Of a stretch of DNA of 64,000 nucleotides, positions 31,263-61,259 are shown piece by piece. This DNA is from Aplysia californica (Eukaryota). The position numbers were made by a program, and so were the translations under genes. The notes below the pieces were generated by a model. The model did no database searches. It saw only the letters and a list, made by a program, of their open reading frames with translations, and was not told the DNA's origin. The DNA lies in assembly GCF_000002075.1 (NCBI RefSeq), contig NW_004797557.1:554989-618988 (forward strand), read 5' to 3'. Each line of letters starts with the position of its first letter. Position 1 is the first letter of the stretch.

Positions 31263-33153
31263 CGAGGGCTGTCCCATGGAAAACCGGAAAAGGTCCATAA
31301 AAACAACAATCTTTGTCCTATTATAATAAAAATATAACACATCATACCTCAACATGTGCATTATTTCTCAATGTAATCACCATCCCGCTGGGCGCATTTT
31401 TTCCCATCGCTGGATCGGGGAGAAGATACCCTCCCTGAAGAATTTTTCGTCAAGGGATTTCAACCAATCTTTCACGGCTTCCACGAGGTTTTCGTCGTCG
31501 GTGAATCGCTGTCCAGAAATATGGCGTTTCACAGGTCCAAAAAGGTGATAATCTGATGGGGCCAAGTCAGGACTGTGAGGGGGGTGTGGCAGAACTTCCT
31601 AGCCAAACCGTTGGATCCAGTCTTTCGTAGTGTTTGCAGTGTGTGGCGTTGCGTTGTCATGCTCCAAAATGACACTGCTGGACAACTGGCCTGGTTTTTC
31701 GGCGCACAACCTCTCTCAACTTATCAAGAGTCTGGCAGTATCTGTAAGCATTAACAGTTTGTCCTGGTTCAAGAATGTCAAGAAACAGAACACCCTTAGC
31801 ATTCCACAAAACCGTGGCCATGAGTTTCTTCACCAATGGCTGAACTTTAAACTTTTTCGGGGAGGTGAAGACATGTGCTTCCAAACCATTGAAGGGGGCT
31901 CTCGTGGCCTAGAGGTTAAGGTGTTGGCCTCTCATTCAAAGGTCCCGGGTTCGATTCCGGGTAGCGACCAAAAAATTTTCTTCTCTAAAATTGTCTCCTT
32001 TCACATCCTTTCCTGATCTCTAACAATGTTCTGTTGTCTGCTTTCATTTCCACTTTCTGCCCCCACCCCCTCACCCCCTTTGCCCCCTCCTCTGGGCTCC
32101 TGACTCTTTCTGCAGCCTTTCTACTGCTACTCCCTGGCTCCTCCTAACTGCTGTCTTTCTGCCACACCCCTGATCTTCTGGTAGGAAAGATCTACACCTA
32201 GCCTTCTCGGACAAGGGCGAAAAATCTCGGAGGGCCCGTGTGCAAGTTGCGCACGTTAAAGATCCCTTGGTGGTCTAAAATCGATAAGAGTAGGCTTCGG
32301 CCGCCACCCGGGCAAAATTCAAAATTTCCTACCAACGAAAAAGTATTAGGTGTGTCCTGCGCGCTCATATGACCTTATGCAGTTGCGAGCGCCGTAAAAC
32401 CCTATACTAAACAAACAAACAAACCATTGAATCCCTCTTCGTCTCAGGGGTCATGTGGTGTATCCAAGTCTCATCACATGTAATTTATATATAATGCTTC
32501 TCAAAAATGCTTCATCGTATTGTTGGAGGTCTCGAGATGCATTAATGACTCCCCTGACAGCTTGACGACAACGATTCAACAAAGTCTGAGACACTTCAAC
32601 ACGTTGCGTCTTGTGGTCAGCTGTCAGCTCTTTTGGGACCCATCAAGCAGAGACCTTTCGATAATGCAGCTCATCAAACTCTATCCTATGGACAGTTGAC
32701 TTTGAAATGTTTAGAGACTCGAAAATTTCGCGAATTTTTAGGCGCTTGTCTGTTTGAATGAATTCGTTAACACGACTCTCGTTGTCCTCAGTCTTAGCAG
32801 AAGAACAAGGTCCTGGGTGAACTTTGTCATTGATATCCGTATGCCCGCCTTTGAACTTACTACACCACTCATATACCTGTGACTTTGCCATTACTTTCTC
32901 CCCGTAAACTGACTTTATTTCAGCGTGTATTTCTATAGGTCTTAGACCTTTTGCAGTCAGAAACCGAATGACAGACCTCACTTCTATCCTTGACCAATTT
33001 TTCAAGGGGATAGTCATCTAGGGAGAACTGCTGTGTTCGTTTGGTTTGTGCGAAGCTCATGGTGCTCAATCGGGAAATTCCTATATGATTGTTTTACAAG
33101 TGTGCATTTACAGAATGTAAAAATATAGAATAGTTTTCAAATTACAGCCCTCG
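31263..33153 (-). mobile_element. Mariner (DD34D) transposon, inactivated
   Basis: TA|CGAGGGCTGT...ACAGCCCTCG|TA; ORF from 33017 (EVRSVIRFL..IHAEI..VYG), (R->*)WVPKEL, TCDETW, HSPDLAPSDYHLF; stops, frameshifts and a SINE insertion. Confidence 0.95.
31894..32419 (+). mobile_element. Full-length tRNA(Glu-like)-head SINE with Deu/Nin-like central domain and Nimb-LINE-like tail
   Basis: A/B boxes (GTGGCCTAGAGG, GGTTCGATTCC); core GCACGTTAAAGATCCC...AAGAGTAGG; (AAAC)n tail; 12-bp TSD CAAACCATTGAA (31882-31893, 32420-32431). Confidence 0.9.
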
Positions 33154-36924: not shown

Positions 36925-37369
36925 CTCTGTAGTTCTAGCTTTCGAATGGACTACTGATCGCAGGCCCGGACTATATATAAGATCTCTGCGTGTACCGGAA
37001 TTATGTTATCATCTCAACCTGTGCCCTGTTTGTTATCTAACTGACCCGTTGACCTGTCCTCACATAAGGCTTGCGTAACCTAACAATGAGTGATAACAGT
37101 GGTCTTTATTTCAATCTTTATTCCCCGTCTATTTCAGGATCGGATAGGGTCTCAAATCTCAACCCTGTAGCCTTGTCGATAGTCACTAGTCACGACTGAT
37201 TGAGTTGTCAAGTGTCAACACTGACTTCAGGGAAGTAACTAGAGTTTCACAAGCTCGTTTCTTGCTGGCGCGAAAGATGGTCTCCCTTCTCTTCCATCAA
37301 ACTGCCAGCTGATTGCTGTAAACAAAATAGAAAGTATAAGAAGCCCACAAGCCTACGGTGTGTGTCTGT
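36925..37369. promoter_or_regulatory. Putative bidirectional promoter with non-coding first exons of the SDR (-) and endonuclease IV (+) genes
   Basis: Minus-strand donor AG|GTAAGT at 36924 and plus-strand GTAAGT at 37370 face away from each other; TATATA at ~36972; TTGCGTAA at ~37071; no recognisable repeat here. Confidence 0.45.
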
Positions 37370-37874
37370 GTAAGTGATGTGATGCTCTGTTCGGTAGGCC
37401 TAGGCTAACAACTGCTTCACTGTAATACTACTGGTCAGTGTCTAGATCTAGAATCTAGATAGAATCTACTGGTTCAAAAGTTTTTAAGTTTTAGGCGGCA
37501 TTAATTTGTCATCTCATTTAGACTATTCTAGATCTAGGGCAGGGCCTATATTTATCCATAAAGAAATCTTGAACTCCAAATGACAGAGAAAATAAGTTTT
37601 TCCCTCTCCTGTAAAATTTGCTGCGTGTGGAATTCACAATTTCATCAGGCGACCGACGATATAGGCTAGCTATAGCTTTTATAGGCTAGCAGAAATCAGA
37701 TTCAGAATTCAGAATCTGAACAGCAAAAACTCCTCTGAATTGAATTTGTTATTGAACAATCTTCAGCTGCCTCCACACCCGAGTGTCACACACACATCAA
37801 GTCGTGTCAAGGGTCAGTAAGTCGGAGTACAGAGACCATGTCGTGGATCTAGGTTTAAGTCGCAAGAGATAGTT

Positions 37875-38425: not shown

Positions 38426-38544
38426 TGGATCTAGATCTACATTGAAATTTTATTAACTCTGTGAATCTTTGGTTTTGGCACTTAGAGTACCGGTAGATCT
38501 TAAGAGAGTAAGTTGGAATTGAATGTTAGCGTTTGCATGAAGTA

Positions 38545-40839: not shown

Positions 40840-42290
40840 TTACTTTCTTTTACTTTTTCATCCTCTGTTGCCGTTAAGCGTCGAGGGGAGATGCAGATTT
40901 CTATGGTAGGCCAGCTCCGCTGCTTTTTCAGTAGTGATGTTATGTTTTCTTAGGGTTTCCTTGACACCCTTGATCCCCCTTTTGCTCGGCCTTCCTCTTC
41001 CTTTTTAGCCTGAGTGCTTGGTGACATGCATAACAGGTGACCAAACCATTTTATCCTCTGTCTTTCTATGTAATGCAGGCAGGACTCAGTGCTGATAGCT
41101 GCTCTTACTTGTTCATTTCTCTGCCTGTCTCGTCTTGTAATGTTAAGGGTTTTGCGGAGACATTTCATTTCGCTTGCAGTGGTTTTGCTTTCATGGGTTT
41201 TGCTTAAGGTCCAGGTCTGGCACTGATAACATAATATTGGTATGAACATTGAGGTGATAAGCTGTCTCTTTGTGTCCATAGAGATGTTTGGATGAGATAG
41301 GAGGGGTGCAAGCTGGAAGGTGACAGCGTTGACTTTTTGAGTTCACATTTCTATTTCTCTGTCTATGGACCCATTTTCAGAAAAAGTGCTGCCAAGATAT
41401 TTAAAAACTCCTTCACCTGTTTCAGTTGTTAACTATCGACATGGATGTTCGGGGAACTATGGTTTCGGCTCACTTTCATAACTTCTGTTTTTGATGTGCT
41501 TATTTTCATGTTGAATTTCTCACAGGTGTTGTTGAGTTCGGTAGTGTGATTTTGGAGGCTTTGTTGGTCATGATGAATAAAACATTGGTCGTCTGCGAAC
41601 AGAAATTCATTTAGGCTTTCTGGGCTTTGGTTTGCTTCTTGAGTTATTGTGTCCATTTATATTATAAACAGGAGGGGAGATAAAACGCATCCCTGTCGTA
41701 CTCCAGATCTTACTTTCCAGTCTGTATTGCCTTCCTTCGTTATTACTAAACTTCTGCTGTTGGTATACAGAGCTCTGACATTATCTAACATTTGTCCTCT
41801 GACGCCATACTTTTCGAGTGTGTTCCAGAGCTTTGCATGGTTTACTCTGTCAAAAGCCTTCTCCTGGTCTATAAAGACGATGTTGGATTCTTTGTTGTGT
41901 TTGATTGTTTTCTCGCGTATCTGTCGTCATGCGAATACGGCATCCGTGCATCCTCTTCCCTTTCGGAATCCAAACTGAGCTTTGCTCAGATTTCTCTCCA
42001 AAATAGGTCTTATGCGCTGCTCTAGTATTTTGGTGTACATTTTTCCTGAGTGGCTTAACAATGAGATGGCTCTATATGTTTTGCAGTCGTGTTTTTTGCC
42101 CTTTTTTTTCCATAATGGTACCACTATGGCTTTCTGCCAGTCTTCTGGGCATTTTCTTTGTTCCCAGGCTCTGTTGAAAATACGCCTCAGCCACAATGTA
42201 CCTGTGTTTCCACAAGCTCTTATTATAATGGCTTCCACTCTGATGTCATGTGGTCCTGGGGCATGTTTTAAACACTGTGCATTATTTTAA
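40840..42290 (-). mobile_element. RTE-like LINE, 5'-truncated and degenerate
   Basis: PEDWQKAIVVPLWKKKG, YRAISLLSH, QFGFRKGRGCTDA, LFADD, YQCQTW, IKWFGHL. Confidence 0.92.
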
Positions 42291-43218
42291 AGACAACCCA
42301 AAGATAGCAAGATTTGTGGAACAACCAAAAGTCACACATACTTTGCTTTGTAAATTGTTCATAACCTTGCTTACCAAAAAGCACTTGTGACTAGAACCTT
42401 TCTTACGAAAAAGGGTTTTGTCGCTGACTCAGATTGCACTTAGATTTATCAATACTTCCTTGTAGGATTTTGTCTAAGGCCCATCACAATACATAGTGGA
42501 CAAAATTTTGATTGTTTACATTGAACATTAACAATATTTGACTGTTGGTAATTTTTTTTCAATTGAGCACCAAGGACTTATATCTCATTTAGTTAAGTAG
42601 GTCAGAAGTTTTGTTTTTTCCAAAGTCAAAGGCCAAAACTTGTAGCTTTTCCTTTGTACTTTGTCCTTGCAGAATTTAGGCTTTCAGAATACGTCTGACT
42701 CTAATGACCAACCCTTTCATTTGTTTTGTGAGATCTTAAGTCTGGACCCTCATAGTTTGTGAAATATGTTGCTTAGTTTAGTGGTGATAGATTGCAAACA
42801 ACACTCTCACTTCGCCATTTTTTCTCCATTTAAATTCTTCTTAGCCTTAGAGACGGGAATATTACAGTGTTTGGCTAATTAATGTTTTGCAGTTTTGTTT
42901 TTATAATTTTAGGTTTCTTGGAAGTAGGATGAAAATTGATATGCCACATTTATAGAATTGAGAAGATGATAATATTTGATTTAATCGTAGATGTGTTCAG
43001 TGTTTTTTCAAAAGCGTATTGTAGTTATTGTGTGTACATTTTGAAATTTACTTAAATACCACCACTGTCTACCCTTTCTTTTCCAGTGTATTATTCAAGT
43101 ATGAAGGGTGGTCTCTTTCAAGGGAATGAACAAGAAAGAAGTGCGTAAATCGTGTCTATAACTTCTGAACGGAGATGCTTTTCCTGTACATTTTGCTTCA
43201 ATAACTTCAGAATTTCAG

Positions 43219-46200
43219 CTATGTCTTGGTGGAATAGTGATTTTGTTTCCCCCAAGTCTACAGGCAAAATCAGCTTAAGACGCATCAACTTATTTTGTCA
43301 AGCAGACATTAGTTTTGCCGTAGAACCTTCTTTAAGTAGATGTATACCAGATATAGCTTTGGGAAATATAATGCCTGACAAAACTGACACAGTTTCTTTC
43401 AATGATATTCTGAATAAAGATTTCAGTGGGATTGGAATGTCAACTCCACTAGCTAGCAAAACAAAAGGCAACGGATTATTAGGTGATACCGCCATGATAC
43501 CTCTCAAAGGCAGGAATGGAACTGAACAGATTGATGAAAAAGTTTTAGTTGAGTGTTTTTGGGATAAAAAAGAAAGTGAAGAAGGCGAATGTGGGAATGG
43601 TGTCGAAAATGAAGTTAAAAGAGATACATTAAGATCTGTGGTGCCTGGGAATTGTGACAATGTTAGTGTGAGACATTTTGTTACTTACAATGCCAGGTTG
43701 CTGCCAATGATGAATAGTTCACAGACTATTAGAGAAGAGCCTGCTGAAACAAGGGATGATGTGTTGAATAATTCTTGTAAAATGGTAAAGACGCTGCCCA
43801 GTAACAGAGCTGTTGGATGCCAAAGAGAGGAAGAAAATGTACAACAAAGAAGACATATTTATTCTAAAATTATGGCCCCAGTGAAATCTGGGTATGATGG
43901 AACTGATTGTATTTGTTTGACGACTGTGGATCATAACCCAAAAGACAATGGTCAGATGTTGAAGGAAAAGTGTCCTCAATTTACTGGTCCTAATGTAGAA
44001 GGAGATTTAGCAGACGCTGCCACAAATGTTAAAACAGAACTTCCTTCCTCATATGCAGATAAAGATTACAACTGTCCATTTGAATTACCTACTAGTACTA
44101 GACCTGTGCTACTAACCTTTGTCACAAATGCAGCTTCAGAGAATATAAAGTATCACAAAGTCAAAGATGCAGATCTCAAACTATGCTCTAAAAATTCTCT
44201 TAAGTGCAATGAGTTCTTTAAAGGTGACAGAGAGGGTAATTTTCTCAAAACTGAACGAAAGCTTCATTCAAGACTACTTGATGTTTCAAAACACTGTCTC
44301 AAACTAGACAGATACACTGAAAATCCGCGGCAAGCTGAAGAAAAGGAAAATGAATTTGAATGTACAGAGAATTTAAAAGTGAAAAGAGTAACAAACAGTA
44401 TTGAATTGACTTCTTCAAGAACTAAGGGTGATAACTATAGAGGTACAAAGCCACTAGAGAAGAATGAAATAATGGAGGCACATTCTCTAGCTCAAAGCAA
44501 TATCAGTTTTGCGAAGATGGAGACTGTCAATCAAGATTGTTTGAATGAGAAAAGTGGTGCAGGCCATCAAAGTGGTAGGTCTAAAGGGAATAAAGTTGGA
44601 AAAGTGTACTGCACGAGGGCAAGGGCAAAAGCATTGACTGAGAGTATAGAGAAAAGTTTGATGAAAGGCAATTTGAAATGTGATGTGCCAGATTTTAAAC
44701 CTGTACCAAAAGAACCCATAAATAGTTCGAAAAGAAAGATTTATAATACAAGGGCACTTAATAGGAAACAGAAGATGGAAGCAGAAATGAAAGTTCATTC
44801 TACTGCTATAGGTCAGAAAAGTCCTGAAAACGATTACCATGAAGGGCATAATGTGTGTGGAACAAGGGCACGGGAACACAGCGGTATGTCATCACATTCC
44901 ACAAAGCCGCCTGTATCTGAAATGACATTTGAGACCTTTATAGCATTGAGAACCAAACATGAATCAAATGATGTCTCTTCAATTACTTCAAACTTTGATA
45001 AGAAGTTAAGAGAGAGAACACACTACAGTGCAACAGTTAGCGGTGTACCTACCAGTGCAGATAATGGTGAAAAAATGAAAAGTGCTAATTTTGTTTCCAG
45101 TCGAGCAGCTGCTATGATTTGCTCCAAGAACACACACTCTTCCGCTGAGAAAGACCAGACAATGGGAAGAGTATTGAGAGAGCGAAAGCCAAAGTCTTCA
45201 AATTTTGAAGCTGTACTTCCTGGTTATGGATATAAAAATGTTAAAAAAGTTGGGGAATCAAAGCTGGTGGGGCAAGTAAAGTCAGTACATGTAAAGAAGA
45301 CTCAAGGAGGAAATGGCACCATGGACAGAAAACGTCAAGTGTGTGCCAAGGCAATCCCTGAAGTCAGGAATGAAATGAGTTCTAATTTAGCTTTAAAGAA
45401 AGAGAAGAAAGTCAAACAGCAAGAAAATAATCCAGGGAAAGTAGTCTCTCAAAAGTCTTCAACAGGTCCATCTGACTTTGAGAACAAATGCACAGAAGAA
45501 AAAAACCCTTCAAAAAAGCATGAGGAAACACTAATATCGGTTAGTGAACTTTGTTCTGTAGCTGGGGAGAAAAATGTTTCTGATTATCCCCATTATTCTA
45601 GTCAACATTTGAGTTTGACAGTTTTAGGGGCAGATACTATACTAAACTGTGACTCTGGTATTCCAAATCAAATTCAGGCAAATCAAAAAAGGTGTGAACA
45701 AGCTATGTGTCCTGACATCATTTTGAATAAAACAGTGACAAAACTTCCAGAGAGTGGCTCAGAAATAAGTCATATCAGCTTATCTCAAATGTCAAGAAAG
45801 ATACCAATAGAAACTCAGGCGTCAAGGCAAAAAACAGACTGTGCCAGGACAAAGGCAGTATTTCTAAAACCAGCTAAAATGAGGCTTACAGATTTTGTTC
45901 ATTCAAAAAGAGCTGTTCAGTCTGACTCAATAAAGACTGATGTGCCCGTGCAGAAAACTTCCAGCCAGAGAACAGACCTTGTCAAAACAAAGCCGATAGC
46001 TCTTGCTCTTAAGCAAGATGGAAAGAGAAATGCAGTTGCAGTGAGCTCCAGAAAAGCTGAAGAGTCTAATCAAATTAGGATTGAGGGATTGAGACCTGAA
46101 AGGTCAAGAATAAAAACAGATCCTGTCAAGTCAAAGTCAAAGCTGACAGTTCCAAAAAAAATTGAAAAGAAAAAGACAGTTTTGCTTTGTTCAAAGGCAG

Positions 46201-46830
46201 CTTTACCGCGTTCTCCAAATAGTGCAACCACCAGCACATCCTGTTGCAGAACTGATTCGTCAGTAAACTTTGTTTCTTCTGATAAATGTGGGATTTCAGA
46301 AGTCTTGAATGAAAATAAAAGACAAAGTGGTTCTCATGCAAATTTTGTTTCCTGTCCATCAGCTACAGTGACTGGCAGTCAGAGAACTCATTCTTCCACT
46401 GAGGAAGACAAGACCATGGGAAGGATATTGAGAGAGAGAAAGCCGAAGTCTTCCAGCCTTGGGGTTGTGCATCCTGGCAATGGACATGCTATTGTGAAGA
46501 AAGTTGGGAAATCTAAGCCTGTGGGCCAAACAAAATTGGTGAAGAAGACTGAAGGTGGAAATGGCCTCTTGGAAATGAAACATCAAGAGTATGCAGAGCT
46601 GGAGGCAATCACAGAAATGAAGAAGGAAGTGAGTAGGCCGACTGATTTGACGGTAAAGAAAGAGAAAAAAGTCAAACAGCAAAAAAGTAATCCGGGGAAA
46701 GGAGTCTCTCAGAAGTCTTCCACACACACAGGTCCTTCTGACTGTGAGAACAAATGCTCTGGGGAAATACAGTCTTTGGAAGGGAATGAGGAAACACTGA
46801 TGTTTGTTGGTGCTCATTGCTCTATAGCAG
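43219..46830 (+). CDS. APN1: Endonuclease IV gene, giant 3.6-kb exon (K/S/E-rich extension ending in the first TIM-barrel strand)
   Basis: Stop-free over 3.6 kb; ends [11 protein letters not shown]|gtgagt in phase 1. Confidence 0.85.
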
Positions 46831-49800
46831 GTGAGTCCTTGTGTCCTCTTCCTAGTCTTTGTTCACTCTAGAGTTGTTTTTATGTCTTTTGTTGTGACAT
46901 GATCTGTCTTTGATTGCATTGCCAAGATGCAATCTTGAAGGCGCTTTTATCTCATCATGTTTGTTACAAAACTTCTTGGCCGTGACAATGCCTCATTTAT
47001 TTATTTTTGTTTGTTTGTTTGTTTTGCTTCGTTTCGTTTTGTTTTTTGCTCTTGGTATTTTGGCGAAGATATTATGTAAAGTCACTATTTCTGGCTCTGA
47101 GCCATAGATTTTAACATTTATTATTGTTAACTATAATTCTAATTTTGTATCTTTAATGGAGGCAGCTTTCATGAAACAGATGATTATTTCAGTATCAGAT
47201 GCTAAAGCTAACTATTGTCTTCTCAACAAACTAGAGATTGTATCATGTGCTTTTGGAGCATGGATGTAAGAACATTTGTGTAGAAAAAAGGATTGTTTTA
47301 GAATTAGGGGAATCATCACTGTGAGACAAAAAGAAGTAATACAGCAAGTAGTAATGTATCTCTAGTTTCAAAATAAGAAGCAGAAAGGGGCGGGAGTCTC
47401 TGGGAGGGAGGTAGTGGGCCATATATACATATATATATATATTTTTAAAAATATTTTTGAAAATTTTTTATTCTACACACTCACAAGACTAGCAAAACCT
47501 TCACTTTCAAGGAATTGTAAATGTAATTTTTGTACTTTTGTGCCACAGGTGGTGTCAGCAATGCAGTAAAAGAGGCAAAATCTCTAGGTGCGAAAGCTTT
47601 TGGTTTGTTTGTGCGTAATGGCAGGACTTGGAAACTCAACGCTTTAAATGAGAGTGAAAGTGAGAGGTTCAAAGCTGCGTGTAAGGTCAGTATAACTGCG
47701 TACATGAAGAAGTTAATTACTTACTATCTGTTACGCCATCTGGCGTTTAGGGTAGAGACGGGCGGGAAGCACTTTTTTCTTCCCGAGCGAGAAGACCGAG
47801 AAGCTGACCTTCTTCTCGCCGGGACCGGTACCGTAGTGCTTCGTCTCGTGACCAATTTCTCTTCTCGCGCCATTCACGAGACGCTCACTAAGCGAGAAGG
47901 CCGGCCGTGGCTGGGGCCTAAACTAGGCTAGCCCTTTTGCACAGGCGCAGGCGGTGAAGGAAGGTCGGGAGACATAGGCCTAGGCCTGATCAACTCCCCA
48001 CTCGCCTCATCTCGCCACCCTCTCCCCTCCCATTCAGTTTCAGACACAGGACGGCACGGTGATGGGTGACACTGTCTGCGTGTCCTTTCTCGCTGGCTGT
48101 GCCGCTCTTTCCGTCGACACCTCCCACTTTCTCAATCTCGTTACTCGTTATGTCAAGCCAATGAGCGGTATCACTTCTCGGTACCGGGCAGTAGTTTAGT
48201 GGCCGAGCAGTGACGGGAAGGGCATTTCTCTCGAGAAACAGGTACTCTTCTCAGCTCGTGCCCGCTCTTAGTTTAGGGCAGCAACAATGGATCTCCAGTT
48301 CTGTCTGTTTTGGGCCATCTTGGTCAATGTCCCCGACGAATGGTTCCAGGACTTCATTTCAGACTCAACTGTGCGTCTCCAGGTCACTTTGGGTCTGCCT
48401 CTCTCGCGATGTCCTTTGGGTGTCCTGTGGAGGGCAGTCTTTACAATAGAGTCTGGTTCTCTTCTCAGAACATGCCCAATCCATCTCCATCTTCTCCTTG
48501 TTATTATGGTGGTCATGACCTCTTGCCTACATTTTTGTAAAAGATCTGCGTTGCGTTGGAAATTTTGTCGGGCCAGAAGATTCGGAGGATTTGGCGTAAG
48601 CTGGTTGTATGAAAGGAAGATAGCTTGACACGGTCATGATCACTCATCCTCCAGCATTCAGCTCCATATAGGAGTGTGGATAGTACGCAGCTGTTATATA
48701 GCTTTAACTTGGTCTGTATACTGAACTGTCCTGACTTCCAGATGTTGATTATGCTTCTGTGAACAGATCTTTCCTTGCCGGGTCTGTTCATGATGTTTTC
48801 CTTTGTGCCGCCGTCTGTTTTAATTATGCTGCCTTGGTAGGTAAATTTGTCTAATAGGCAGGTCTGCGTTGTTCCCCCTAATCAGCGATGGGGAGCCTGC
48901 ATTTAGTGTCATCACTTCTGTCTTCTTCTGGCTTATTCTTAACCCAATCTGGGGTCTGTATTTGTGAAGTCTGGTTTGTTTTTTCCTGCATGTGGTGGTT
49001 GATATGGGAGAGTAGTGCGAAGTCGTCGGCAAAATCAAGATCCTTGAGGGTGGAGAAGAGGGTCCACCTGATGCCTCTCTGTCGTTTTCCTCGTGACCTA
49101 GTCAATGGCAAGTTGAACAAAATTGCTGACATTTGCATTCTTCTCTAACTCCTGTCTTTACCTCAAAAGCAGTAGTACTGTTTCCAATGACACACTTGAA
49201 AATTTGGTAGAAGCTCTGGATGACCTCAACTATCTTGCAAGGGATTGCATAAGCTCGTAGAATGGACCAAAGACTTTCTCTATGCACACTGTCGAACGCC
49301 TTTTCAAAATCAACGAAGCTGACATAAAGTTGTCTCTGCCATTACGTGCACTGTTCTATTTAATTATGTTGCGGAGGGCAAATATCTGATCTGTGTATCT
49401 TCTTTCTTTTGTGGAATCCTGCCTGTTCTTTTCTTAAGCAGCTGTCCGCTACATACGATTAATAATAATCTTGGCCACGATCTTGCTGGGCACTGATAGC
49501 AACATGATACCTCTCCAGTTGTTGCAGTCTCCAAGAGCTCCTTTCTTTGGTACCTTAACAATGACTCCAGTGCTCCAGTCTTCGGGAATCTGCTCTCACT
49601 CCCATATGGTTTTGAATAGTGGCTGAAGAATGGTGGCAGTCAGTTCTGGGTCTACATTAAACAATTCAGCATTCAGGTTGTCCTTTCCTGGAGATTTTCT
49701 TGATTTCAGGCTCTTAACAGCTTTTACAATCTCGTGTTTTTGTGGTGGGTTAGAGCTGATATCAAGATCCAAGGTAGCTTCCTGTATGTCTGGGGTGTCC

Positions 49801-52800
49801 TCAGGTGGAGGTTGGTTAAGGACTTCCCTGAAGTGTTCTATCCAGAGTGCTTCTTGTTCTTTCTCGATTGTCAGCAGCTCGCCAGTCTTGTCCTTGATTG
49901 GTCCACTCATTCCACTGTGGTACTTGCCACATATTATTCTTGTGATCTTGTATAGATCTACGTTGCCTTGTTCACCTTTAGCAGTTGCCTCCTCTGCCTC
50001 AGTTGCCAACTCTTCCATGGCTTCTCTTTTGTCCTTCCTGACCAGTCTTGTAACTTTCTGGCAAGCTTCCTTGTAATCCTCTGCGTACTTCTCTTGTAGC
50101 CATATCGACTTAGCTGCAAGCTGTCTTTTCTTGATTTGTCTCCGTTCTTCAATAGTTTCCCATGTTCCTTGTTCTATCCATTCTTTGTTTGCATTCTTTT
50201 TCTTGACACCAAGACATGTCTTATTGCTCTCTGTGTAGGCCTCAACAATATGCTTCCTTTGGGTATTGACTTCATCTGCATTGGGGGTGGTTTCTTCCAG
50301 GTCTTGGATAGCTTGAAATCGGTTCTTTAGCTCTAGTTGAAAGGCAGATTCTCACATTGCCATCACTGAGCTTTTGAACATTAAGTCACGTCCTTGTCAC
50401 CTCCCTGGTGAATGTTTTCTTCAGCTTGTGTTTTATCCTTTCCGTCACTAGATGATGATCGCTGTCGACATCTGCTCTTCTTCTGACTTTCTCATCCTGA
50501 AGGGAATGTCTCCACATTCCTCCTATCATGAAGTGGTCAATCTGGTTCTTGTCTCGGCCATTTGGAGAATTCCAGGTCAGTTTGTGGATTGTACGGTGTG
50601 GGAAAAGGGTTCCGCCTATTACCAAGTTGTTCAATGCGCAGAAGTCCACTAGTCTTTGACCGTTCTAATTTCTCGTACCCATACCATGTTGTCCCATCAC
50701 TCTCTCATAGTTGGTGTTATCCTCTCCTACTTTAGCATTCAGATCGTCCATTACAACGATAAGGTCGTGACGAGGTATACCTGTCAATTCCCTTTGCAGC
50801 TGTTCATAAAAACAGTCCTTGCTTTCATCTTCACTGTCGTAAGTAGGGACGTAACATTGGATGATGCTTGTGTTGGTGTGCTTTCCCTTCAGTCTCACTG
50901 GCATCATTCTGCTGTTGATCGGTTTCCACTCTATGAGGCATTTCTCAAGTCCCTGTTTTAGGATGATAACTACACGTTCCCTATGCTGGTTGTCTTCTCT
51001 GCCGGAATAGATCAGTGTTTCTCCAGTTGCTGTTCTCAGCCTGCCGGATCCTGTCCAGTGACTTTCACTTATGCCCAGAACGTGCAATCTATATCTCCTC
51101 ATCTCTGCCGTTACTTGTGCCAACTTACCAGTTTTGTACATTGTCCTTACATTCCACTGTCCTATGATGACTTTTGTCTTTGCGGTGTTCAGGTCCTCCA
51201 TCTTCCTGCAAACAGCTTCCTTGCGGCTTTCACTGCCGGTATTCATACGAGTCCCAAGAGACTGAAGGTTCATTACACACAGAAATATGGTTCTCTTTGT
51301 TTCTGTTTCCGTAACATAGGATTTTTGCCAGTCTGGGTTGTTAGCCTTGAGCTGAACCTCCGAAACCTGGAGAGCCGGTGGATCACGCTTCGTCTGACCC
51401 CCACCCGTCAACCTGTCTGGCATGGGTGGCCCTACCAGGAGCATTAGCTCTTGGGGTGACTGAGGCACACAAGCTCTCTAATCACTACAAGGTAGTGACC
51501 CACTAGAGAGACATGAAGAAGTATCACACTGTAATTTGCTTTGATATATATATATATTATATGTTCTTTTGGAAACCCAGCAAAAAGGTTGGCGAGTATG
51601 CATTTGTGGTTACTTCTCCAATGTGAAATTGAGTCTCTGAATTTTTAATGGGTTTTTTTTTCATTTCATCCTCCTTTATACAGATGAAGAAGAGGTGGGG
51701 TTGATAAGTTGTTGAAGGGCACCTCTGGAAAGTCTTTCTTTTCCTCTGTTGTTTCTGCCCATTTATGTTGTTTTTTCTTTCCGATTACAAATATTGAATA
51801 TTGTCAATGTCTCTCCTCCGTCTTTTCTTTGTATGATGCTCACTAGTGACCTCTCTAATCTTTAGCACACGTACATATGAGTTAATTGTGTTGCAAGTCC
51901 CATAAAACTCTTACTAAAACTACAAAAGAAAAAAATGTTCCTCTTAAACAGAGATTACCTCTTCACCTTGGCTATGTTCTGCTAGACTAAATAATGAAAT
52001 GTATACACTTATGTTTTCCGGCAGGAACATGGCTATTCTCCACATCTTATTCTGCCCCATGGCTCTTATTTGCTCAACTGTGGATCATCAAATCCAGACA
52101 CATTGAAGAAATCGCGAGACACTTTGGTCCATGAATTGCAGATCTGTGAAAAATTGGGTCTGACTCTTTACAACTTCCACCCAGGTGAGCATTTTGTCTC
52201 TTTTAGTGTAGAATTGCTGGCTTTGCTCTGATAAGGTTATTCCATGATACTGAAATGTGAACATTGTAAAATATGAAAGATTTCAACTCATCCCCTATTT
52301 CTTCACTTCCTTCCCTTATTCCTTGTGCCCCTTTGAAAAGAATAAGCCCATTGAGTTTGTCTGATGCTCCTTGTCTTATTATATTTTTTTATATTTATCC
52401 CCCGGGGCAGTGCCACTGACTGTAGTGTCTTTAGGCCATTCCCAAAGGGGGGACATTTCTCGTTCAAGCACAGTAGAATTGTAAATGGGCTGATTCATCA
52501 TGTCACGCTCATAACTGTGCCTGATCTGCAACAGGGAACTGCTGCTTTTTCTTTCCTAATCCTTACTATTGTCATTTTCCTTTACTTCTTTTGTATGTTT
52601 GTAATACTCTTGTGACCCACTATTTCCTGGGTGCCTTGATAATTAAAGCAGACTTTGTGCTTTTGAAGCTAGAGAGGTGAGCAGAGTAAGTCTGATTCCC
52701 TGTAAGGACTTCTCTGCTGACACCCACCCCTTGGCGCTTATATGACCTTATGCAGTTGTGAGCGCCGTAAAACCCTCTACTAAAAAAAAAAAGTACCTTT

Positions 52801-55800
52801 TTGTGTAATGGTGCATCTTCATTGTTTCATATTGAGGGAAGCCATGAAATCTTTTTGTGAATTCACTACTCATAAGAAGAGCAATAAAGTTCGAAACATG
52901 ATTAAGATTCTTATGAAGCTTTTGAATTGTTTTTGGAATGTTGTGAATTCTACCAGTAGATCATGGCTCAAGTTGGGAAAGTGGTAAAAAAGGTTTCTAG
53001 GGGGAAACCACATTTCTGTTTCTTTTGATTCACTAGACAATTTTTTAATTTAATTTTTTTTTGGTCCCGTGTCCTGATTTTGGTGACCGTATTTGTTTGT
53101 TACGTAAAAAGAATGTTATGACATGGTTCAAATTGTTATGATTTCTAAAGAAACGAAACAAGGGAAAGGGGAATTGTTACGTCAGTAATCATGATGATGA
53201 TGATACCGCTGATGATGTTCTGATGTAGGAAATGACCTGCTTATTAGTCTTAGTGTTAAGTTTGTTTGGTGCTTACTCTAGATCCCCGCCAGGCTGTCCT
53301 GGGGGCAGGACACAACCCTCATTCCCAACTCCTCGCTTAGAGTGACCCAAAATTTGGAAATCATTCGTCATCTTCATCCCTGGCATTTAATAAAAGTATA
53401 CCAAAAAATCACATTGGGGCTACTTCTAAGTGATGACATTGTTAGTGTGTTTGTTACCCTACGTCTATGATATCATATTTTCATTAGACAATGGTTAATG
53501 TCTGATTTACACTTATTTGACTTATTGTAATCGTAATCACATTTTAAAATATAAATATATGTGCTTTTTTTGCCCCCTTTGACAATTTAGATCATTTAGG
53601 ATGTAGGGCCAACACAGACTAAGAGGGATACAACATAGTACCAGAAAGACTGAGATACTCAATAACAATTTTCCCTACTTGCAAATCACACTCAAGTTTC
53701 TTGTGTGACAGCAAAATGCCTACCACTACATCACAGATGCGGGTATTGTATTCACTATGGTGATAAATGTGAAATTGTAGTTTATCGTTGTAAAATATGA
53801 GAGGATTTTTTGCTTACTTATGGTGTTCTCCAATATCTTTGTTAAGAAAAGGGGACCTCCAGTCTGTGGGAGAGCCACTGGGAAAACCCAAAAAATAATA
53901 AACTATATGAAATAAAACCAAAACTAGAACAGCGATATCCTTCGGACCTCTCCAGAAGAGACGAAGTCATTTTTACTCGATTGCGCATCGGACACACGGC
54001 CCTGACCCACAAATACCACCTACAGGGAGATGAGAAGCCGTTCTATGTCGGATGCGACACAGATTGTACCATTAGACACATACGAATGTCTAGACTTTGG
54101 AGAGATCCGAAGGAAATATTATAAATGCAAGAAATTGCAAGATATCTTTTCCGTCGTTGTTCCCAGCAAAATTTTGAATTTTATAAAGGCCATTGGCCTT
54201 TATGGCAAGTTGTAAAATGAAAAATGAAAACGTACTATTTAAAATGTTTATTGTTACCTATAAGAGTTGTTTTAAATCACAAATATATTTACACTGAATT
54301 TTAATATTTTAACATTTTAGCATTTTAAAGTCAATCAGTTAACCAATCGTGGAATGAACTTTTGCGAAAGTAAACAACTTGTGTTTCGCGCGCTCATATG
54401 ACCTTAGCAGTTGCGAACGCTGTAAAACCCTATACTACATACATGATACATAGAAAAGGGGTCAATTTACATTTTTGTTCTTTTTTTAAAAACTGTTTTA
54501 TTTTGTGCTGACTCCACAAACTAAACTATGCAGGCTCAGCATGTGGCCAAGGGACTGTGGACCAGTGTATTGATACCATTGGGAAGAGCATCAACCTAGC
54601 CCACAGCAAGACAAAGTTTGTTAAAACTGGTGAGACTTCTTTCATAATGCCAGGTTCTTTTTATGCCATTTATATGTATGTAATGTATATTTCCGTATTG
54701 TAAATTTTATATAATTGTTTCCTAGTGCTTAGCATTTGTTTCCTTTACTGCCTCAGAAAAATTGTGCCAGGAGCTTACATTTTTATCTTTTACCTTTGGG
54801 CTCCCAATGTGATTCAGGTACACCTACTCCTTAAGCATCATATGCTGAGTAGCTTAATGTATTCATTAGATATATTATGCTACTCCAGACATAGTTCACC
54901 CAAGTATGGGTACTTGCTGAAAATGTCTCCTGGCAGTTGACAAGCAATTTTTTAGATGTTGCTATTGGTGCTGATAAAATTGTTTTGATTTGTTTTTCAA
55001 GAGGTTCTTTTAGAACAGTTTTCTCCTGTTTGTTTACAATATACATCATTCTGCAGGAATATTATCGCCATATGCTCAGTATATATCTGTGCTTCTCATC
55101 TTCCGTATTTTTACGGAAATCCGTACTTTCTGACAGTTTCGTACTTGCTCCCCCATCATTATCAACTCCATCCGTTAAAATAGTGGGATAGCGTAGGGCT
55201 ACCGAGATTCTGGGGCAAAGGATCTCTACTCATCATCGTATCATCTTGTATAAGTTAGGTATAATGGTAATTCTGTCGGCAATAGGTTAATGTTATAGAA
55301 ACCTGCCAGACCCGGGAGTATGAGGAAATCTGTGAACTGCCCCGTGAAAGACCCTCGAAAATACATAAAGTTCTTGAATATTTTGAAAACCAAATCGGAT
55401 AGGTCAGTAAATTAATTTTTCCCGGTCACGATTGTGATGTTTGTTCAGCTTTTCGCAGTCCGAGAGTACGTTTCTTGCGAACAGGCGGCTATGGTGCCAG
55501 GCGGAAGTGTATGTGACACTGAGGCTTGATCGGGAAAATCAAGATCTGCTTTCGCTTTTGTTACCACCCTGAAATTTGCCAGTGATAGTCTGATACCGCA
55601 ACATTTATGACATGCAGGTCGTGCATTTTAACTCTTTTTATCCTAGCCATACCCCCACGGACTCTGTACCAGTCCTTGGGCCGCCGCGCCGTATGAGTCG
55701 GAAGTCAGTGCGTATAGTTCAAAGTGCTATATTTCTTACATTTACTCTAAGATTTTTAGGAAATTTGGCAGTTATGTTAGAAATTGAATGTAGTTTTTGT

Positions 55801-58800
55801 AAATGTATGTGGTTAGGAAATACACCAATAGCACAATGTAGATTTTGAGGTGTATTCCACCCTCGAACTTGACCCTGATTGCCGCGCCCACAACGTCCCA
55901 TTGGATTTTATAGATCTAGATCTAGCCCTACCCTTCGAGCACAAATTCCAGTATTCACCCCTTCGCCATGATCTGAATCGCTATTAGATGAGTCTAAGTC
56001 CTGTTTCTTATCACCCAGAACGGAATTTACGGCACTTATTTCAGAGTCACTTTCATCAAATTAGTATCATTCCCCCTCACAACCCAGCGCCACTTCAAAA
56101 AGTACTTCGTCGGTCGTGAATGTGCGTTTTCGAGACATCTTTCAAGCTTCTACACCCATCAAAAACAAAGAAACCACAGTTCATTGGAAAATTAAAATAT
56201 TCAGACAGAGTTAGCATCGCCGTATTTGCGTATTTTGGTAATTACAAGCAGAACTAGCTTCTTTGACATGACCGTATCGCTGTTCCGAGAATACTCGTAG
56301 CCCGGACTGGTCCTCGTTACGAGTATACTCGTACCCCGGATAAAAAGAGTTAAACGCTTTGTCGCCCCGCATATAAATCAATATTTGTCACTGTATTGTC
56401 ACTTGTAAGAAAATAAAGTAAAGAAAAATATAAGCGTCATCCGATTTTCAGCTTGTCAGGCTGGTCATCATGACCAGTCAGTGAACCTGCGCGTGTTTGC
56501 ATCGCTTGATACAGCAACGTGTGAGTACCGGCGGTTGTTGAAGTTGCCAAAGTTCATTCAAAGTCTGAGCGTCGTGAAATATGGCTCCGAAATGGGATTT
56601 ATTTTTTAACACTTTCCCATCGCAAAGCTCATGTATAGTAAAAACTCTTTCCATCAAAGGGAAAGGCATTTTGGGGAAAATCCAAAGAAAATGCTTGGTA
56701 AACGTCGCGGATAGGCGAGATAAGGCGGCAAGTGTTAAAGATACACTCAGAGGTGCTGAAGGCAACTTGATAGCAAGTTTTAGAATTTTGATTAGAGCTC
56801 TCTGCAAAGCGCGCTTTGGTGCAAGCCTTGTGTGGAATCAGGATCCGCCGTACCTTGTAAGCCTTGTTATATTTAACTAAAGTGTTTGCGCTTCATCGGA
56901 TGGGTGCTAGTGATAGTAAATTATTACTATATTTTAGCTTTCTGTTCAAGATTGGCAGATTTTCAGTGTTATTGCATCTTGCCCTCCCTCAGTTCTTACA
57001 ACTCTCACACTGATATGTCTACTTGAGCCATTCAAGTTATTAATCTAATTTGAGTTTGAGCAATAATCTTGATGAAAAAAGTAGGTGTTATGGGTTGTTG
57101 GTATTCTCTTCAAACAGGCTCCCAAATGCCATTTTTAACCCTCAAAAAGCACTAAATTTCAATTTCTTCGGGGGCTTCGCCCTCTGAACCCCCACCGGGA
57201 TGCTGTCCCTGGACCTTGCTGGAAGCCTTTGCAGCCCTGAAACCCCCAGCAGAATTTTCCTTACTCTTCATCTTCAGCCGTTGGAAGCACTGATATATGT
57301 AGCTACCTGAAAACAGTATCATAAGTGCAATAATGTCAGTGTCATAACAAGGATTTGGGACGTTTTTAGTACTTGTCTTCTTGAAATGTACACCCTTTGA
57401 CTGCATGGAGCTGAAAAGGGACATGAATATTGTTCCGTACAAGCAGGAATGCTGTTAAAGTTTGGTGCATAGGTTTTTGTTAGTGGAAAAAGAAAGTTTA
57501 ATTTCATTTATTTTCTTTACACTCCGTAAAAGCAATTGACATTGCTGTTTCAGATCAAGTAGTCTTTGTCGTCTGTTGCCAAGGCATTTATGATAAAACC
57601 TGAGTTGTTGCCATCCATTCTTTGATGACTATCCACCTTTATGTCTTTGTCTTTCTCTGTCTGATATCATTCATGGCAAATGGATGCTGTGGTGCTTGTG
57701 TACAGTTTGCTCCTTCCTCTTCTCCCGCACAACAACTTGGTTGCCTTTTGTGGTTGTTTCCTTGATGTTTTGCTCCATTTATTTAATTTTTCTACCTTTC
57801 CACTTTATCTTACACATGTTCTTCTTTAGTTATGTTGATAGTAATACAGTCAGGCACAGATAATACGAGCACGGAAAATTCTTAAATCAGGGATAGCTCA
57901 TAGAATTTGCCTTTTCCGGACTGATACATCTTTCATTTTTTTATCAGTTACCCTGAATTATGGATGTGTCGAACACATTTTTCAATCATTGATGTGTTTG
58001 TGTTTGTTTGAGTTGTTTGTGCCCAACTGTGCTTCTGTTTGAAGTTTGTGTTTGTGTACATTGCTTAAATTCACATTGTTCTTTATTTCAGTAATTGAGA
58101 ATATGTCATGTCAAGGCCAGACTGTTGGTGGCAGGTTTGAAGAACTGAAAGCTATCATAGATAGAGTCAAAGACAAGACCAGAGTAGGGGTTTGCTTGGA
58201 CACTTGTCACGCCTTTGCAGCAGGTAAGGATTTGTATCAATTTTGTGTAAGCTTCATCAAATTGATATTTTTAATAAAATAACAATGCGGAGTATAAAAG
58301 TAGCCGTTATTCAACTCTATTCAGTTGTATGTTGTATGGGGCCATATTTTGGGTTGTCATTGCTCTATGTTGCTGCATAAAGTTATTTTTTGATAATAAC
58401 CAACTTGTTAACTCTTTATCTCTGTGGGGGGTAAACTCACTACACTGGGCCCCCTTTTTGGTACCAAATCTAAAAATGACAAAAACGTCAGTAAATGGGT
58501 CATTAGATCAAATAAGTCAACCTATTTTCACAGTTCTTCATCTAATGAATGAACTCCTGATAAAAGAGACCTATTGCCGAAAAATAATTTGGTGTCAAAG
58601 AGGAATGTGCCCGGGCTCGGCTCACAGGCAGAGAGGTTCCGACCGTGAGCCGCTGGGAGTGGCTTGCCAGAGATAAAGAGTTAAAACACAGATTGGAATG
58701 AAGTAATGTGCTTTCAAAGCTTGTTGCTTTACACAGATTTTCAGTTTGCTCTTAATGATCTTCTACTTTTGTGAAAAATCACTGTTGTTTAGATTTTTTA

Positions 58801-61259
58801 GTAGCTTTCTGGCAAGGATAGTCATTTATATGGTATACAACGCTGATTAGTAAGTGCTTGTTCATATTATGGTCTTTTCCGTGAAGTGCAGTGAGATTTC
58901 ACAGAGTAGAAATGCACAATATAATATTAATTTGTATAATCCAGCATTTTATTTTTTTATACTTTAAAATAATGATAGAACGTTATTTTCTTTGTGGGAC
59001 GAGTTACACTCTTCCTTTGTGTCCTTTCAGGGAACCTTGTGCTTTCGTCATAGATATTTTGAATCAGTTGTGCTTACAGTTCTTCAATTTTTACTAGGGA
59101 TTGATTTGGTTATTGTTTTACTACTTTCCTTGGCGTACCTGTCTGCTGTAGCTTTCTTCAATGGATAGTGTTCCTTTGTCATGCACAAGAGATGACTTGG
59201 TGCAGTGGTCCTATTTGAAAAGAGTCGTGTGAAAATAAATTCAAAGTTGGTTTTACTACTAGTTGACAACATATTGTTATTTTATTAAATGTTGACTTCC
59301 TGGTAAGGAACATGTGTATGTTTTTAAAGTCTTTCTGATTAGTTTAATAAAACTACTCATATTATTATATATAATGCGTTCAGATTTTCAGCGGTACCAC
59401 TATGTGATCAGTGATCATGAATATTGAATTGTGTGCCATCATGGCTTTACAGATGGCATTATACAGAGTTCCTTGCGTTTAACAATAACAGAGTTCCTTG
59501 TATAAGCTTAATTTTCTTTGTTGTAAACTGTCACTGTCAGTCTTTTGTCAAGAAAAGTGAGTAACCCAGTTTGACCCTGCGTCACTGGGTTAGGAAAAAT
59601 TTTGAGTTAATCGTATTCATTTTTCTTACCACACCACTAATGTTCTTTTCTTCTCTCTTCCATGCAGGCTTTGATTTGTCTTCTGAGGAGGGATACACAA
59701 AGATGATGAATGACTTTGAAGAGAAGATTGGTCTGAAGTATCTCAGTGCTGCCCACCTCAATGACTCAAAAGGTTACCATTTGCCTCTTGATGATTTTTT
59801 GTTAGAGAAAACTGTCGATATCTGTGGATTTTCAGTCAGCATCTGGCGCTGACACTGCTCTTTGTGAGAAGAAAAAGTATAGGCTTAGTCTGTACTCTTT
59901 CAGGTTAGAAACTTCCATCCGTCATATTTTCTTTTAGTTGATCATTCTTGCTTTAAAAATGTCTGCTTTGAAATGAAAGCGTAAAGCACATTTGGGCACA
60001 GATAACTCAAACTCATTGAGGATTGAAAATGTATTTGACACTCATCGATAATTAGAGTAAACTGATCGAAAGAAAGGTTGGAGAGATATTGAAGAAAATC
60101 AAGGGAAGTAGCTGTGATGGTACAATGGTTGAAAAATAAATTACGGTTACGAATTTTCTACAGCTTTTTGAATGATAAGGCCATATCTCTTTGTGAAAAT
60201 ATTCAACCTTCCTGTGTTGCTTATAAAGTCAAGGCCAAGTTTCTTTGCAATTTCATCTGGTTTTTTTAAGTTAAAATGGGACAAGAAATAGGAAGAGACA
60301 AGACACATGCTTCTCAGTATTTTCAAATTCGGCAAAGTGCAGTTGCTTTCTGAAGGGTTGACTTCCAATGTTCGATTTTATCTCAATTTGTTTTTTTAGA
60401 AATGTTGAAAACATTGATTTGGGGATGCCAAATCTCTTACAAATTTCTGTTTTCACGCAGTACTTCTACTTCTCATAACCTCTGCGAAAATCTGATGCCT
60501 GGTTTCAGTTGTCATGCAATAGTTTTCTCTTTTCTGCCATCATGAAAAGTGCCTGATATCGATAAAAGGATAGAAAAATGGATATGTTTGCACCTTGGTC
60601 AGTGTTGAAGCAAGCGATAAAGAGAGAGTGTTGCCAACAGGCTTACGGCTAAAATAAAATAGCTCTTACATCAGATCATGATCATGGCGATGTAACCAAC
60701 ACTGGCCAGAGCATGCCACCCACCCTTCTTGTGTAATACTTTCTCAACTGGTACCGTTCAAACAACTGCTCACACACATATTGATACTCAAACATGTAGG
60801 CTACACATACACAAACATAATTCACTCTCCACATGGCCTAATGCAGCACCACACTGTCTGTCTTTAATCACATCTCACTATCCAGTATCCACCATCATAT
60901 GAATAGATTCAATGAGTTCTAGTGCCTTATGCAAAGGTAATGGTGCGTCTCAATACCGGCACGTGTATCAAGCAAAAACAGTTTTTCTTGTTTTAGTAGA
61001 CTAAAATTGCCAGCAGCATCTTTCAGTGTAAGCCTATGTGTGGTTATTTTTCTTTTTTTTTGTCTCACGTTTTGGATCCCCAGGTGAACTTGGCTGTCAC
61101 CTTGATCGTCATGAGAATATTGGCAAAGGTCGCATTGGCATGGATGGATTTCGAAGAGTGATGAACGATCCACGATTTAGGAACATCCCAATGATCCTGG
61201 AGACTCCAGTGGGCGACTATGCTAAGGAAATTCAAACCTTGTATCAGCTCACAAAGTGA
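43221..61259 (+). CDS. APN1: Endonuclease IV family AP endonuclease (Nfo/APN1-like) with a ~1200-aa N-terminal extension, ~1470 aa
   Basis: Exons ~43219-46830, 47549-47685, 52025-52184, 54534-54629, 58092-58223, 59668-59772, 61084-61259, phases consistent. Motifs [59 protein letters not shown] small extra coding exon at 43101-43140 is possible. Confidence 0.93.
47549..47685 (+). CDS. APN1: Endonuclease IV exon
   Basis: [25 protein letters not shown]. Confidence 0.93.
47753..48270. mobile_element. hAT-like MITE nested in the RTE 3' end
   Basis: 8-bp TSD GTTTAGGG (47745-47752, 48271-48278); termini TAGAGACGGGC / GCCCGCTCTTA. Confidence 0.8.
51380..51510 (-). ncRNA. Candidate HDV-like self-cleaving ribozyme at the RTE 5' end
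   Basis: P1 CTCTCTAGT/ATTAGAGAG, P2 GGGTCAC/GTGATCC, short P3, J4/2 CGAA; P1.1 unclear. Confidence 0.45.
52025..52184 (+). CDS. APN1: Endonuclease IV exon
   Basis: [21 protein letters not shown]...LYNFHP. Confidence 0.93.
52400..52792 (+). mobile_element. Retroelement fragment ending in the Nimb-type tail and poly(A)
   Basis: GCGCTTATATGACCTTATGCAGTTGTGAGCGCCGTAAAACCCTCTACT-An; 5' boundary uncertain. Confidence 0.6.
53570..53740 (-). mobile_element. Short SINE, 21100-21299 family
   Basis: Sequence similarity along its length. Confidence 0.55.
53855..54451 (+). mobile_element. 5'-truncated I-group (Nimb-like) LINE 3' end
   Basis: [27 protein letters not shown]...decayed [18 protein letters not shown]; 10-bp TSD AGAAAAGGGG; (TACA)n tail. 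Confidence 0.88.
54534..54629 (+). CDS. APN1: Endonuclease IV exon
   Basis: [23 protein letters not shown]. Confidence 0.9.
55632..56349 (-). mobile_element. piggyBac-like non-autonomous element
   Basis: TTAA TSD, perfect 12-bp TIR CTCTTTTTATCC; decayed acidic N-terminus [22 protein letters not shown] on -. Confidence 0.75.
58092..58223 (+). CDS. APN1: Endonuclease IV exon
   Basis: VIENMSCQG...[14 protein letters not shown]. Confidence 0.95.
58412..58680. mobile_element. piggyBac-like MITE
   Basis: TTAA TSD, perfect 13-bp TIR CTCTTTATCTCTG. Confidence 0.8.
59668..59772 (+). CDS. APN1: Endonuclease IV exon
   Basis: GFDLS...[14 protein letters not shown]. Confidence 0.95.
60147..60543 (-). 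mobile_element. Decayed Tigger/CENP-B-like transposase N-terminal fragment
   Basis: [20 protein letters not shown] (HTH) and [25 protein letters not shown] (second HTH). Confidence 0.7.
61084..61259 (+). CDS. APN1: Endonuclease IV last coding exon
   Basis: [12 protein letters not shown]...IPMILETP...*; AATAAA candidates at ~62841 and ~62890. Confidence 0.95.

Follow-up and report, generated by a model that had tools for sequence, protein, structure and literature searches.

The window analysed here, a stretch of 64,000 nucleotides from Aplysia californica, carries on its plus strand a gene that, judged from its sequence, is the Aplysia endonuclease IV (EndoIV) and belongs fully to the Nfo/APN1 family. 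A stop-free frame at 43149-46871 (1,240 codons) is the longest in the 64-kb window. The frame of the giant exon contains no stops, whereas the remaining five frames hold 40 to 123; at this composition, 1,203 stop-free codons would arise by chance with a probability of about 1e-39.5. In its long form, this exon (43219..46830; 3,612 nt) has its ATG at 43221, encodes an N-terminal arm of 1,193 aa and the first barrel beta-strand, and ends after the barrel-start residues at a phase-1 donor (G/gtgagt, 46830/46831). Joined to six more exons with ag/gt ends, it yields a 1,471-aa protein with one terminal stop, in which the arm is followed by a 278-aa Nfo barrel. The six are the catalytic exons 2 (47549..47685), 3 (52025..52184, with the PHGSY and FHPG ligands), 4 (54534..54629), 5 (58092..58223, IENM and DTCH) and 6 (59668..59772, HLND) and the last coding exon (61084..61259, DRH, LETP and the stop), all on the plus strand. 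This spliced model is identical letter for letter to the A. californica RefSeq isoform X1 (XP_012939808.1). An earlier note on this DNA had proposed an extension of about 1,200 aa in a single 3.6-kb exon, some four times as long as the catalytic domain; both statements held, the ratio of arm to barrel being 4.3-fold.

RefSeq gives three isoforms for this locus (LOC101847885), namely X1, X2 (XP_005101593.1) and X3 (XP_005101594.1), and the sequence cluster of the Aplysia endonuclease has three members, of 437, 406 and 1,471 aa. A small upstream exon (43088..43140, plus strand; ATG of X2 at 43101, MKGGLFQGNEQER; phase-1 donor at 43141), when joined to position 46363 and the six catalytic exons, reproduces X2 exactly (P0002, 437 aa). 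As the X1 and X2 models equal RefSeq, the anatomy of the gene was already annotated; the RefSeq names ("uncharacterized protein," "probable endonuclease 4") are silent on the motif and the duplication described below. The last coding exon is 100% identical to isoform X2 of the A. californica probable endonuclease 4 and has one match in the whole genome (single copy), and the 3' untranslated region extends beyond 62000. An origin of the giant exon from a transposon was considered and rejected, as its only match in the 927-Mb genome was to itself, both by DNA and by its first 45 aa; copy numbers from these searches are lower bounds.

Upstream of this gene, three exon-sized open reading frames on the minus strand (29118-29423, 26468-26767, and 23656-23949) match successive parts of PF00106 (adh_short), and the region 23656-29423 is, by its domain matches, a short-chain dehydrogenase gene. 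The dehydrogenase and endonuclease genes probably lie head to head around 37000-37800, and gtaagt sites at 37814-37823 and 38505-38514 are candidate donors for non-coding first exons of the latter. The window further contains Mariner/Mos1-type transposase remnants (31660-33017, minus strand; PF01359, PF17906), broken pieces of a non-LTR retrotransposon upstream of the giant exon (41432-42286, minus strand; RVT_1 in three frames), and additional non-LTR pieces (about 47700-51500, minus strand; Exo_endo_phos, DUF6451) in the intron after catalytic exon 2.

The catalytic barrel matched E. coli Nfo (1QTW) with an E value of 1.1e-81 and was recognized by the TIGR00587 (nfo; 336.2/333.1 bits, cut-off 129.65) and NF002199 (349.4/346 bits, cut-off 315) models. 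The residues that we take to be the nine ligands of the three-metal centre were all found in X1 (H1261, H1301, E1337, D1371, H1374, H1408, D1421, H1423, and E1453) and align with 1QTW, in agreement with the earlier reading of all nine Zn-ligand positions as present.

The length of the arm had previously been judged against bacterial Nfo and yeast Apn1, a yardstick that overstated the anomaly, because the arms of animal homologues normally measure some 95-260 aa or more. Among the matches listed, 12 of 120 homologues were at least 700 aa long, and a search restricted to 675-2149 aa returned 38 proteins, several of them fungal fusions to other enzymes, but many of them animal proteins in which the barrel is the only domain. 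Arm lengths could be compared in the 104 of 161 stored proteins in which the barrel start was located (a sample biased toward long ones; P0133 was left out because the pattern used did not locate its barrel start). They amounted to 1,193 aa in Aplysia, 1,009 in P0161, 988, 986, and 845 in Mytilus, 950 in Bradybaena, 899 in Biomphalaria, 823 in Physella, 715 in Crassostrea, 642 in Tubulanus, 478 in Plakobranchus, and 458 in Protopterus, with most others at about 95-260 aa. Arms of 820-1,010 aa in other snails and mussels (Bradybaena, Biomphalaria, Physella, and Mytilus) do not support the supposition that a long arm as such is exceptional; comparably long extensions occur in these relatives, and the Aplysia arm is only the longest located. 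On these sequences it appears not to be different in kind. Two short homologues, P0003 and P0004 (365 and 356 aa), hint at short forms in relatives. Six proteins (P0137-P0139 and P0142-P0144), presumably from glomeromycete fungi, have the EndoIV domain joined to the arginine-biosynthesis domains PF00696 and PF01118, which is either a real fusion or a recurrent merging of gene models.

The giant exon is used in two lengths. Its short form (46363..46830, plus strand) begins at an internal acceptor, ttttgtttcctgtccatcag followed by CTACAG (46362/46363), which is the top-scoring acceptor candidate in the giant exon and yields the 437- and 406-aa isoforms. This form encodes the start of X3 (MGRILRERK) as well as an NLS-like stretch rich in lysine. 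The optional long part (43219-46362) comprises 3,144 nt, or 1,048 codons; in X2, the interval 43141-46362 is a regular intron with gt and ag ends.

RNA evidence was drawn from 4 of the 24 listed sequencing runs (X4 and X21-X23). The RNA label of run X4 is only a guess; the run was taken to be RNA because its contigs are spliced, as demonstrated by two exact length sums: the 170 off-stretch letters of record 3 equal 3+137+30, and the skip in record 6 leaves 334 letters, exactly the intervening exons. Such sums agree with catalytic exons 2 (record 3), 4 (334 = 334), 5, and 6 of the spliced model. Contigs of X4 extend across the long part (43326-44609 at a depth of 11.1 and 44582-46392 at 11.3), and another begins exactly at 46363 with a depth of 37.5, approximately three times that of the long part. 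The latter overlaps the long-exon contig by 30 nt, which is the pattern expected of a graph branch at a used acceptor. Two short intronic X4 pieces, at 51227 and 60598, had depths of 2.1 and 2.65. Both exon lengths exist in spliced RNA, in contigs of one run; the long form makes up roughly 30% and looks like the minority, contig depth in a single run being a poor measure. The raw poly(A) runs X21-X23 were too shallow over the exon (0-0.8x) and were dominated by intronic repeats. Short intronic repeats at 51885-52800 and 54400-54440 reached very high RNA depth in the raw runs, each of which also showed loose poly(A) ends near 52773-52792; the source is probably the 3' end of a common SINE or LINE that is part of many transcripts.

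The possibility that transcripts use only the internal acceptor was thus partly borne out: short isoforms are made via 46363, but the long part is still transcribed. Nor is the long arm supported as the standard form of the enzyme, the short isoforms apparently being the more abundant in the only run that was informative. The first X4 contig listed over the giant exon starts at 43326, with no joint at 43219 among those shown, and the 5' edge at 43219 is placed by the sequence and by RefSeq X1, not by an RNA junction. The MSWW start of RefSeq X1 is compatible with two 5' ends, an acceptor at 43219 preceded by a non-coding exon, and read-through from 43088. In the event of read-through, the MKGG frame stops after 15 codons and the same 1,471-aa protein results; splicing of 43140 to 43219 would give 1,485 aa. 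All three X4 variants listed in the long part (V236M, E663K, and V741I) change a residue.

Part of the arm can be traced to a duplication of the short exon. The segment 45083-45569 (plus strand) is 72.5% identical in nucleotide sequence to 46337-46835 (E value of 7e-80), and the duplicated unit corresponds to the short exon with both of its splice signals. The upstream copy (45083..45569) retains an acceptor-like start, while its copy of the barrel-start residues and of the donor has decayed (gctggggag versus gcaggtgag in the live copy, the gt of the donor having become gg); with this donor dead, the copy is read through in frame. Of the 160 aligned codons, 96 give the same residue in both copies, and dN/dS between them is 0.43 (0.26-0.69; 160 codons). 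The duplication accounts for about 160 of the 1,048 extra residues. A larger tandem unit of 1,254 nt was rejected: the spacer (45570-46336) resembles neither the sequence preceding copy 1, for which 43 of 200 shuffles scored as high (290 of 300 at the protein level), nor the downstream intron (197 of 200). The locus illustrates one route by which giant disordered exons grow: duplication of a whole exon, followed by loss of the upstream donor and read-through of that copy. Visible internal repeats are also present in the arms of Mytilus, Crassostrea, and Tubulanus.

The Aplysia arm has a pI of 9.3, with 16.5% K+R and 12.2% D+E; the net charge is -4 over the first third and +55 over the rest. 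Its description as a basic extension is accurate as regards pI, but the arm is only moderately basic and its first third is neutral. The disorder proposed for it earlier is supported by prediction, with FoldIndex below 0 over 74% of arm windows versus 23% in the barrel and a mean pLDDT of 30.9 in a single-sequence AlphaFold model, the latter being weak evidence without an alignment. Pfam returned no family on the arm at an E value of ≤10, an atlas search gave no usable match (rows to BRCA1 fragments at 0.81 are within the chance range and a lead at most), and a whole-arm homologue search (residues 1-1203; 7,989 candidates of 661-2106 aa) found none at an E value of ≤0.01. AT-hook-like [KR]RGRP motifs are absent from the Aplysia arm; there are four each in the arms of Mytilus galloprovincialis and Crassostrea, and PF02178 was found on P0102. 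The bivalve arms (P0068, P0102, and P0108; Mytilus, Crassostrea) combine internal repeats with these AT-hook-like motifs and apparently represent an independent route to a long arm; one of the three proteins carries the database name 'ATRX'. We infer that the bulk of the Aplysia arm evolves nearly free of sequence constraint.

The tip of the arm is different. A 15-residue motif, [ST]P.S[TR]G.I[ST]LR[RK].NL, is found close to the tip of the arm in four of five long forms from species that we take to be heterobranchs, the arms being impossible to align elsewhere; it begins at residue 10 in Aplysia (X1 residues 10-24; 43248..43292, plus strand), 50 in Plakobranchus, 50 in Bradybaena, and 41 in Physella. 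It was not found in the 899-aa arm of Biomphalaria (best score, 12-14) or in any of 10 non-heterobranch arms, bivalve arms included. Leave-one-out motif scores were 48-53, versus 10-20 for the second-best position of each arm (19.7 at the highest) and no more than 18.7 across the 10 non-heterobranch arms. When the first 300 aa were compared pairwise, none of 300 shuffles reached the score in five of six pairs (6 of 300 in the sixth); whole-arm pairs were marginal (1-4 of 60 shuffles in five pairs), and the top match of the sixth pair lay elsewhere. As the motif was spotted by eye before testing, the out-of-sample profile test weighs more. Among 1.84 billion proteins, the four-copy profile gave two matches at an E value of ≤0.001, P0160 and P0161. 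The match to P0160 was discarded as an artefact of a six-fold short repeat. P0161 (Logan, 3,645-nt contig) has the motif at residue 61 and an uninterrupted frame of 1,020 codons that ends in barrel-start residues at 1020, its stop lying slightly beyond the point that corresponds to the Aplysia donor. The presence of motif and barrel start in one frame ties the motif to EndoIV, and the sequence suggests that the giant exon is shared with the organism of P0161. Across the five sequences, 8 of the 15 columns, including the S/T-P site, are invariant. A second pattern, R..?LR.R[KP], occurs 127-137 aa before the barrel in three of eight long arms scanned (Aplysia, Bradybaena, and P0161), within the part of the arm common to the short isoforms. 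The motif profile had no match in the PDB. Literature searches covering sources other than subscription papers and supplements found nothing on a mollusc, gastropod, invertebrate, or Aplysia EndoIV arm and no description of the tip motif or the short-exon duplication. With the gene model already in RefSeq and long arms common in molluscs, the motif is the part of note.

In the reading that we prefer, and to which we give an even chance, short isoforms (406-437 aa) occur beside the 1,471-aa isoform, which adds a predicted tether of 1,048 residues whose tip motif docks a partner. By analogy with Nfo, the barrel would cut at abasic sites, and, as in C. elegans APN-1, nuclear import would reside in the basic arm common to all isoforms. 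The long form would be translated, adding a flexible, predicted-disordered tether, and the tip motif would attach the nuclease to a partner protein, with the invariant S/T-P site as a possible gate. The choice of 3' splice site would then switch docking on or off, and the arm would have grown partly by exon duplication. The scaffolding arm of the earlier note may survive in this form, as scaffolding or docking would suit the conserved motif at the tip. Retention of the motif in sea hares, sacoglossans, and pulmonates while some 1,000 flanking residues turn over points to a partner and to a level of regulation of which the literature searches turned up no description. Against docking stand Biomphalaria, which is without the motif, and the long-part variants, all of which are non-synonymous. 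A more specific version, which we consider unlikely, holds that a conserved splice switch joins an undescribed slug and snail motif, on a tether of ~1,000 residues, to EndoIV and, under proline-directed phosphorylation, recruits the enzyme to a replication or repair scaffold. If true, an enzyme family absent from mammals would here have a regulated form.

The same observations can be read in other ways. Arms that are unalignable between genera outside the motif, that range from 478 to 1,193 aa in heterobranchs, and that grow by internal duplication would also be expected if the translated arm were mostly tolerated bulk, with the tip motif serving as a localisation or turnover signal (import, a D-box-like [RK]xxL degron, or a phosphodegron). 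Indeed, the motif contains both S/T-P and LR[RK].NL. However, the arginine position of the D-box consensus is K in two of five copies, the eight invariant columns exceed the needs of a simple basic signal, and the short isoforms already have a basic stretch; we regard this explanation as somewhat unlikely. The earlier note had also proposed a chromatin-targeting arm, and the basic arm itself could do this by binding DNA or nucleosomes through its charge. Beyond its first third, the arm is indeed net positive (+20 to +55) in all five named heterobranch long forms and P0161, and the mussel and oyster arms with their four [KR]RGRP motifs each, as well as PF02178 on P0102, point in the same direction. 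The Aplysia arm, though, has no AT-hook, the first third is neutral or acidic, the Tubulanus arm has a pI of 5.2, and charge leaves the tip motif unexplained. Charge-based binding thus seems quite improbable as the main explanation, although it is compatible with docking as a second role of the arm.

Finally, the 5' 3.1 kb could be an untranslated retained intron or pre-mRNA, the short isoforms alone being of consequence. That 43141-46362 is a gt-ag intron in X2, that the short form dominates X4, and that the X4 long-part contigs show no 5' junction, the first starting at 43326, are all in keeping with this explanation. It nevertheless requires an open frame with a chance probability of about 1e-39.5 and is at odds with the conserved peptide motif and the similar open frame in P0161. 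The dN/dS of 0.43 between the duplicates, being below 1, argues in the same direction, although selection on the downstream copy alone could explain it. We therefore consider an untranslated 5' part very improbable.

Animal endonuclease IV has been characterised mainly in C. elegans. Compared with E. coli Nfo (1QTW; TIGR00587, NF002199, PF01261), the Aplysia enzyme shares the 278-aa barrel, the nine ligands, and scores above the curated cut-offs; unlike Nfo, it has an N-terminal arm, of 128-1,193 aa depending on the isoform. The long mollusc enzymes (Bradybaena, 1,228 aa; Biomphalaria, 1,177; Physella, 1,097; Plakobranchus, 758; Mytilus, 1,001-1,269; Crassostrea, 995) resemble it in having a long low-complexity arm ahead of the same barrel, but nothing can be aligned with the Aplysia arm beyond the tip motif, which three of these enzymes have. 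C. elegans APN-1 (396 aa) is likewise an animal EndoIV with a non-catalytic N-terminal arm, of which residues 1-63 are needed for nuclear entry (PMC7744777). That arm measures 118 aa, a tenth of the long Aplysia arm, which moreover is optional. Among vertebrate transcription factors, large exons that encode disordered regions and are subject to regulation have been described (as cited in PMC13702535). In vertebrate genome-stability genes, internal splice sites of ultra-long exons (ETAA1 exon 5, REV3L exon 13, ATRX exon 9, and Brca2) are repressed by RBMX (PMC11446547). The Aplysia exon resembles these in being a DNA repair exon of >1 kb that is shortened by an internal 3' splice site. However, the short form of ETAA1-type exons is there a cryptic product, while that of Aplysia keeps the reading frame, is annotated, and apparently predominates.
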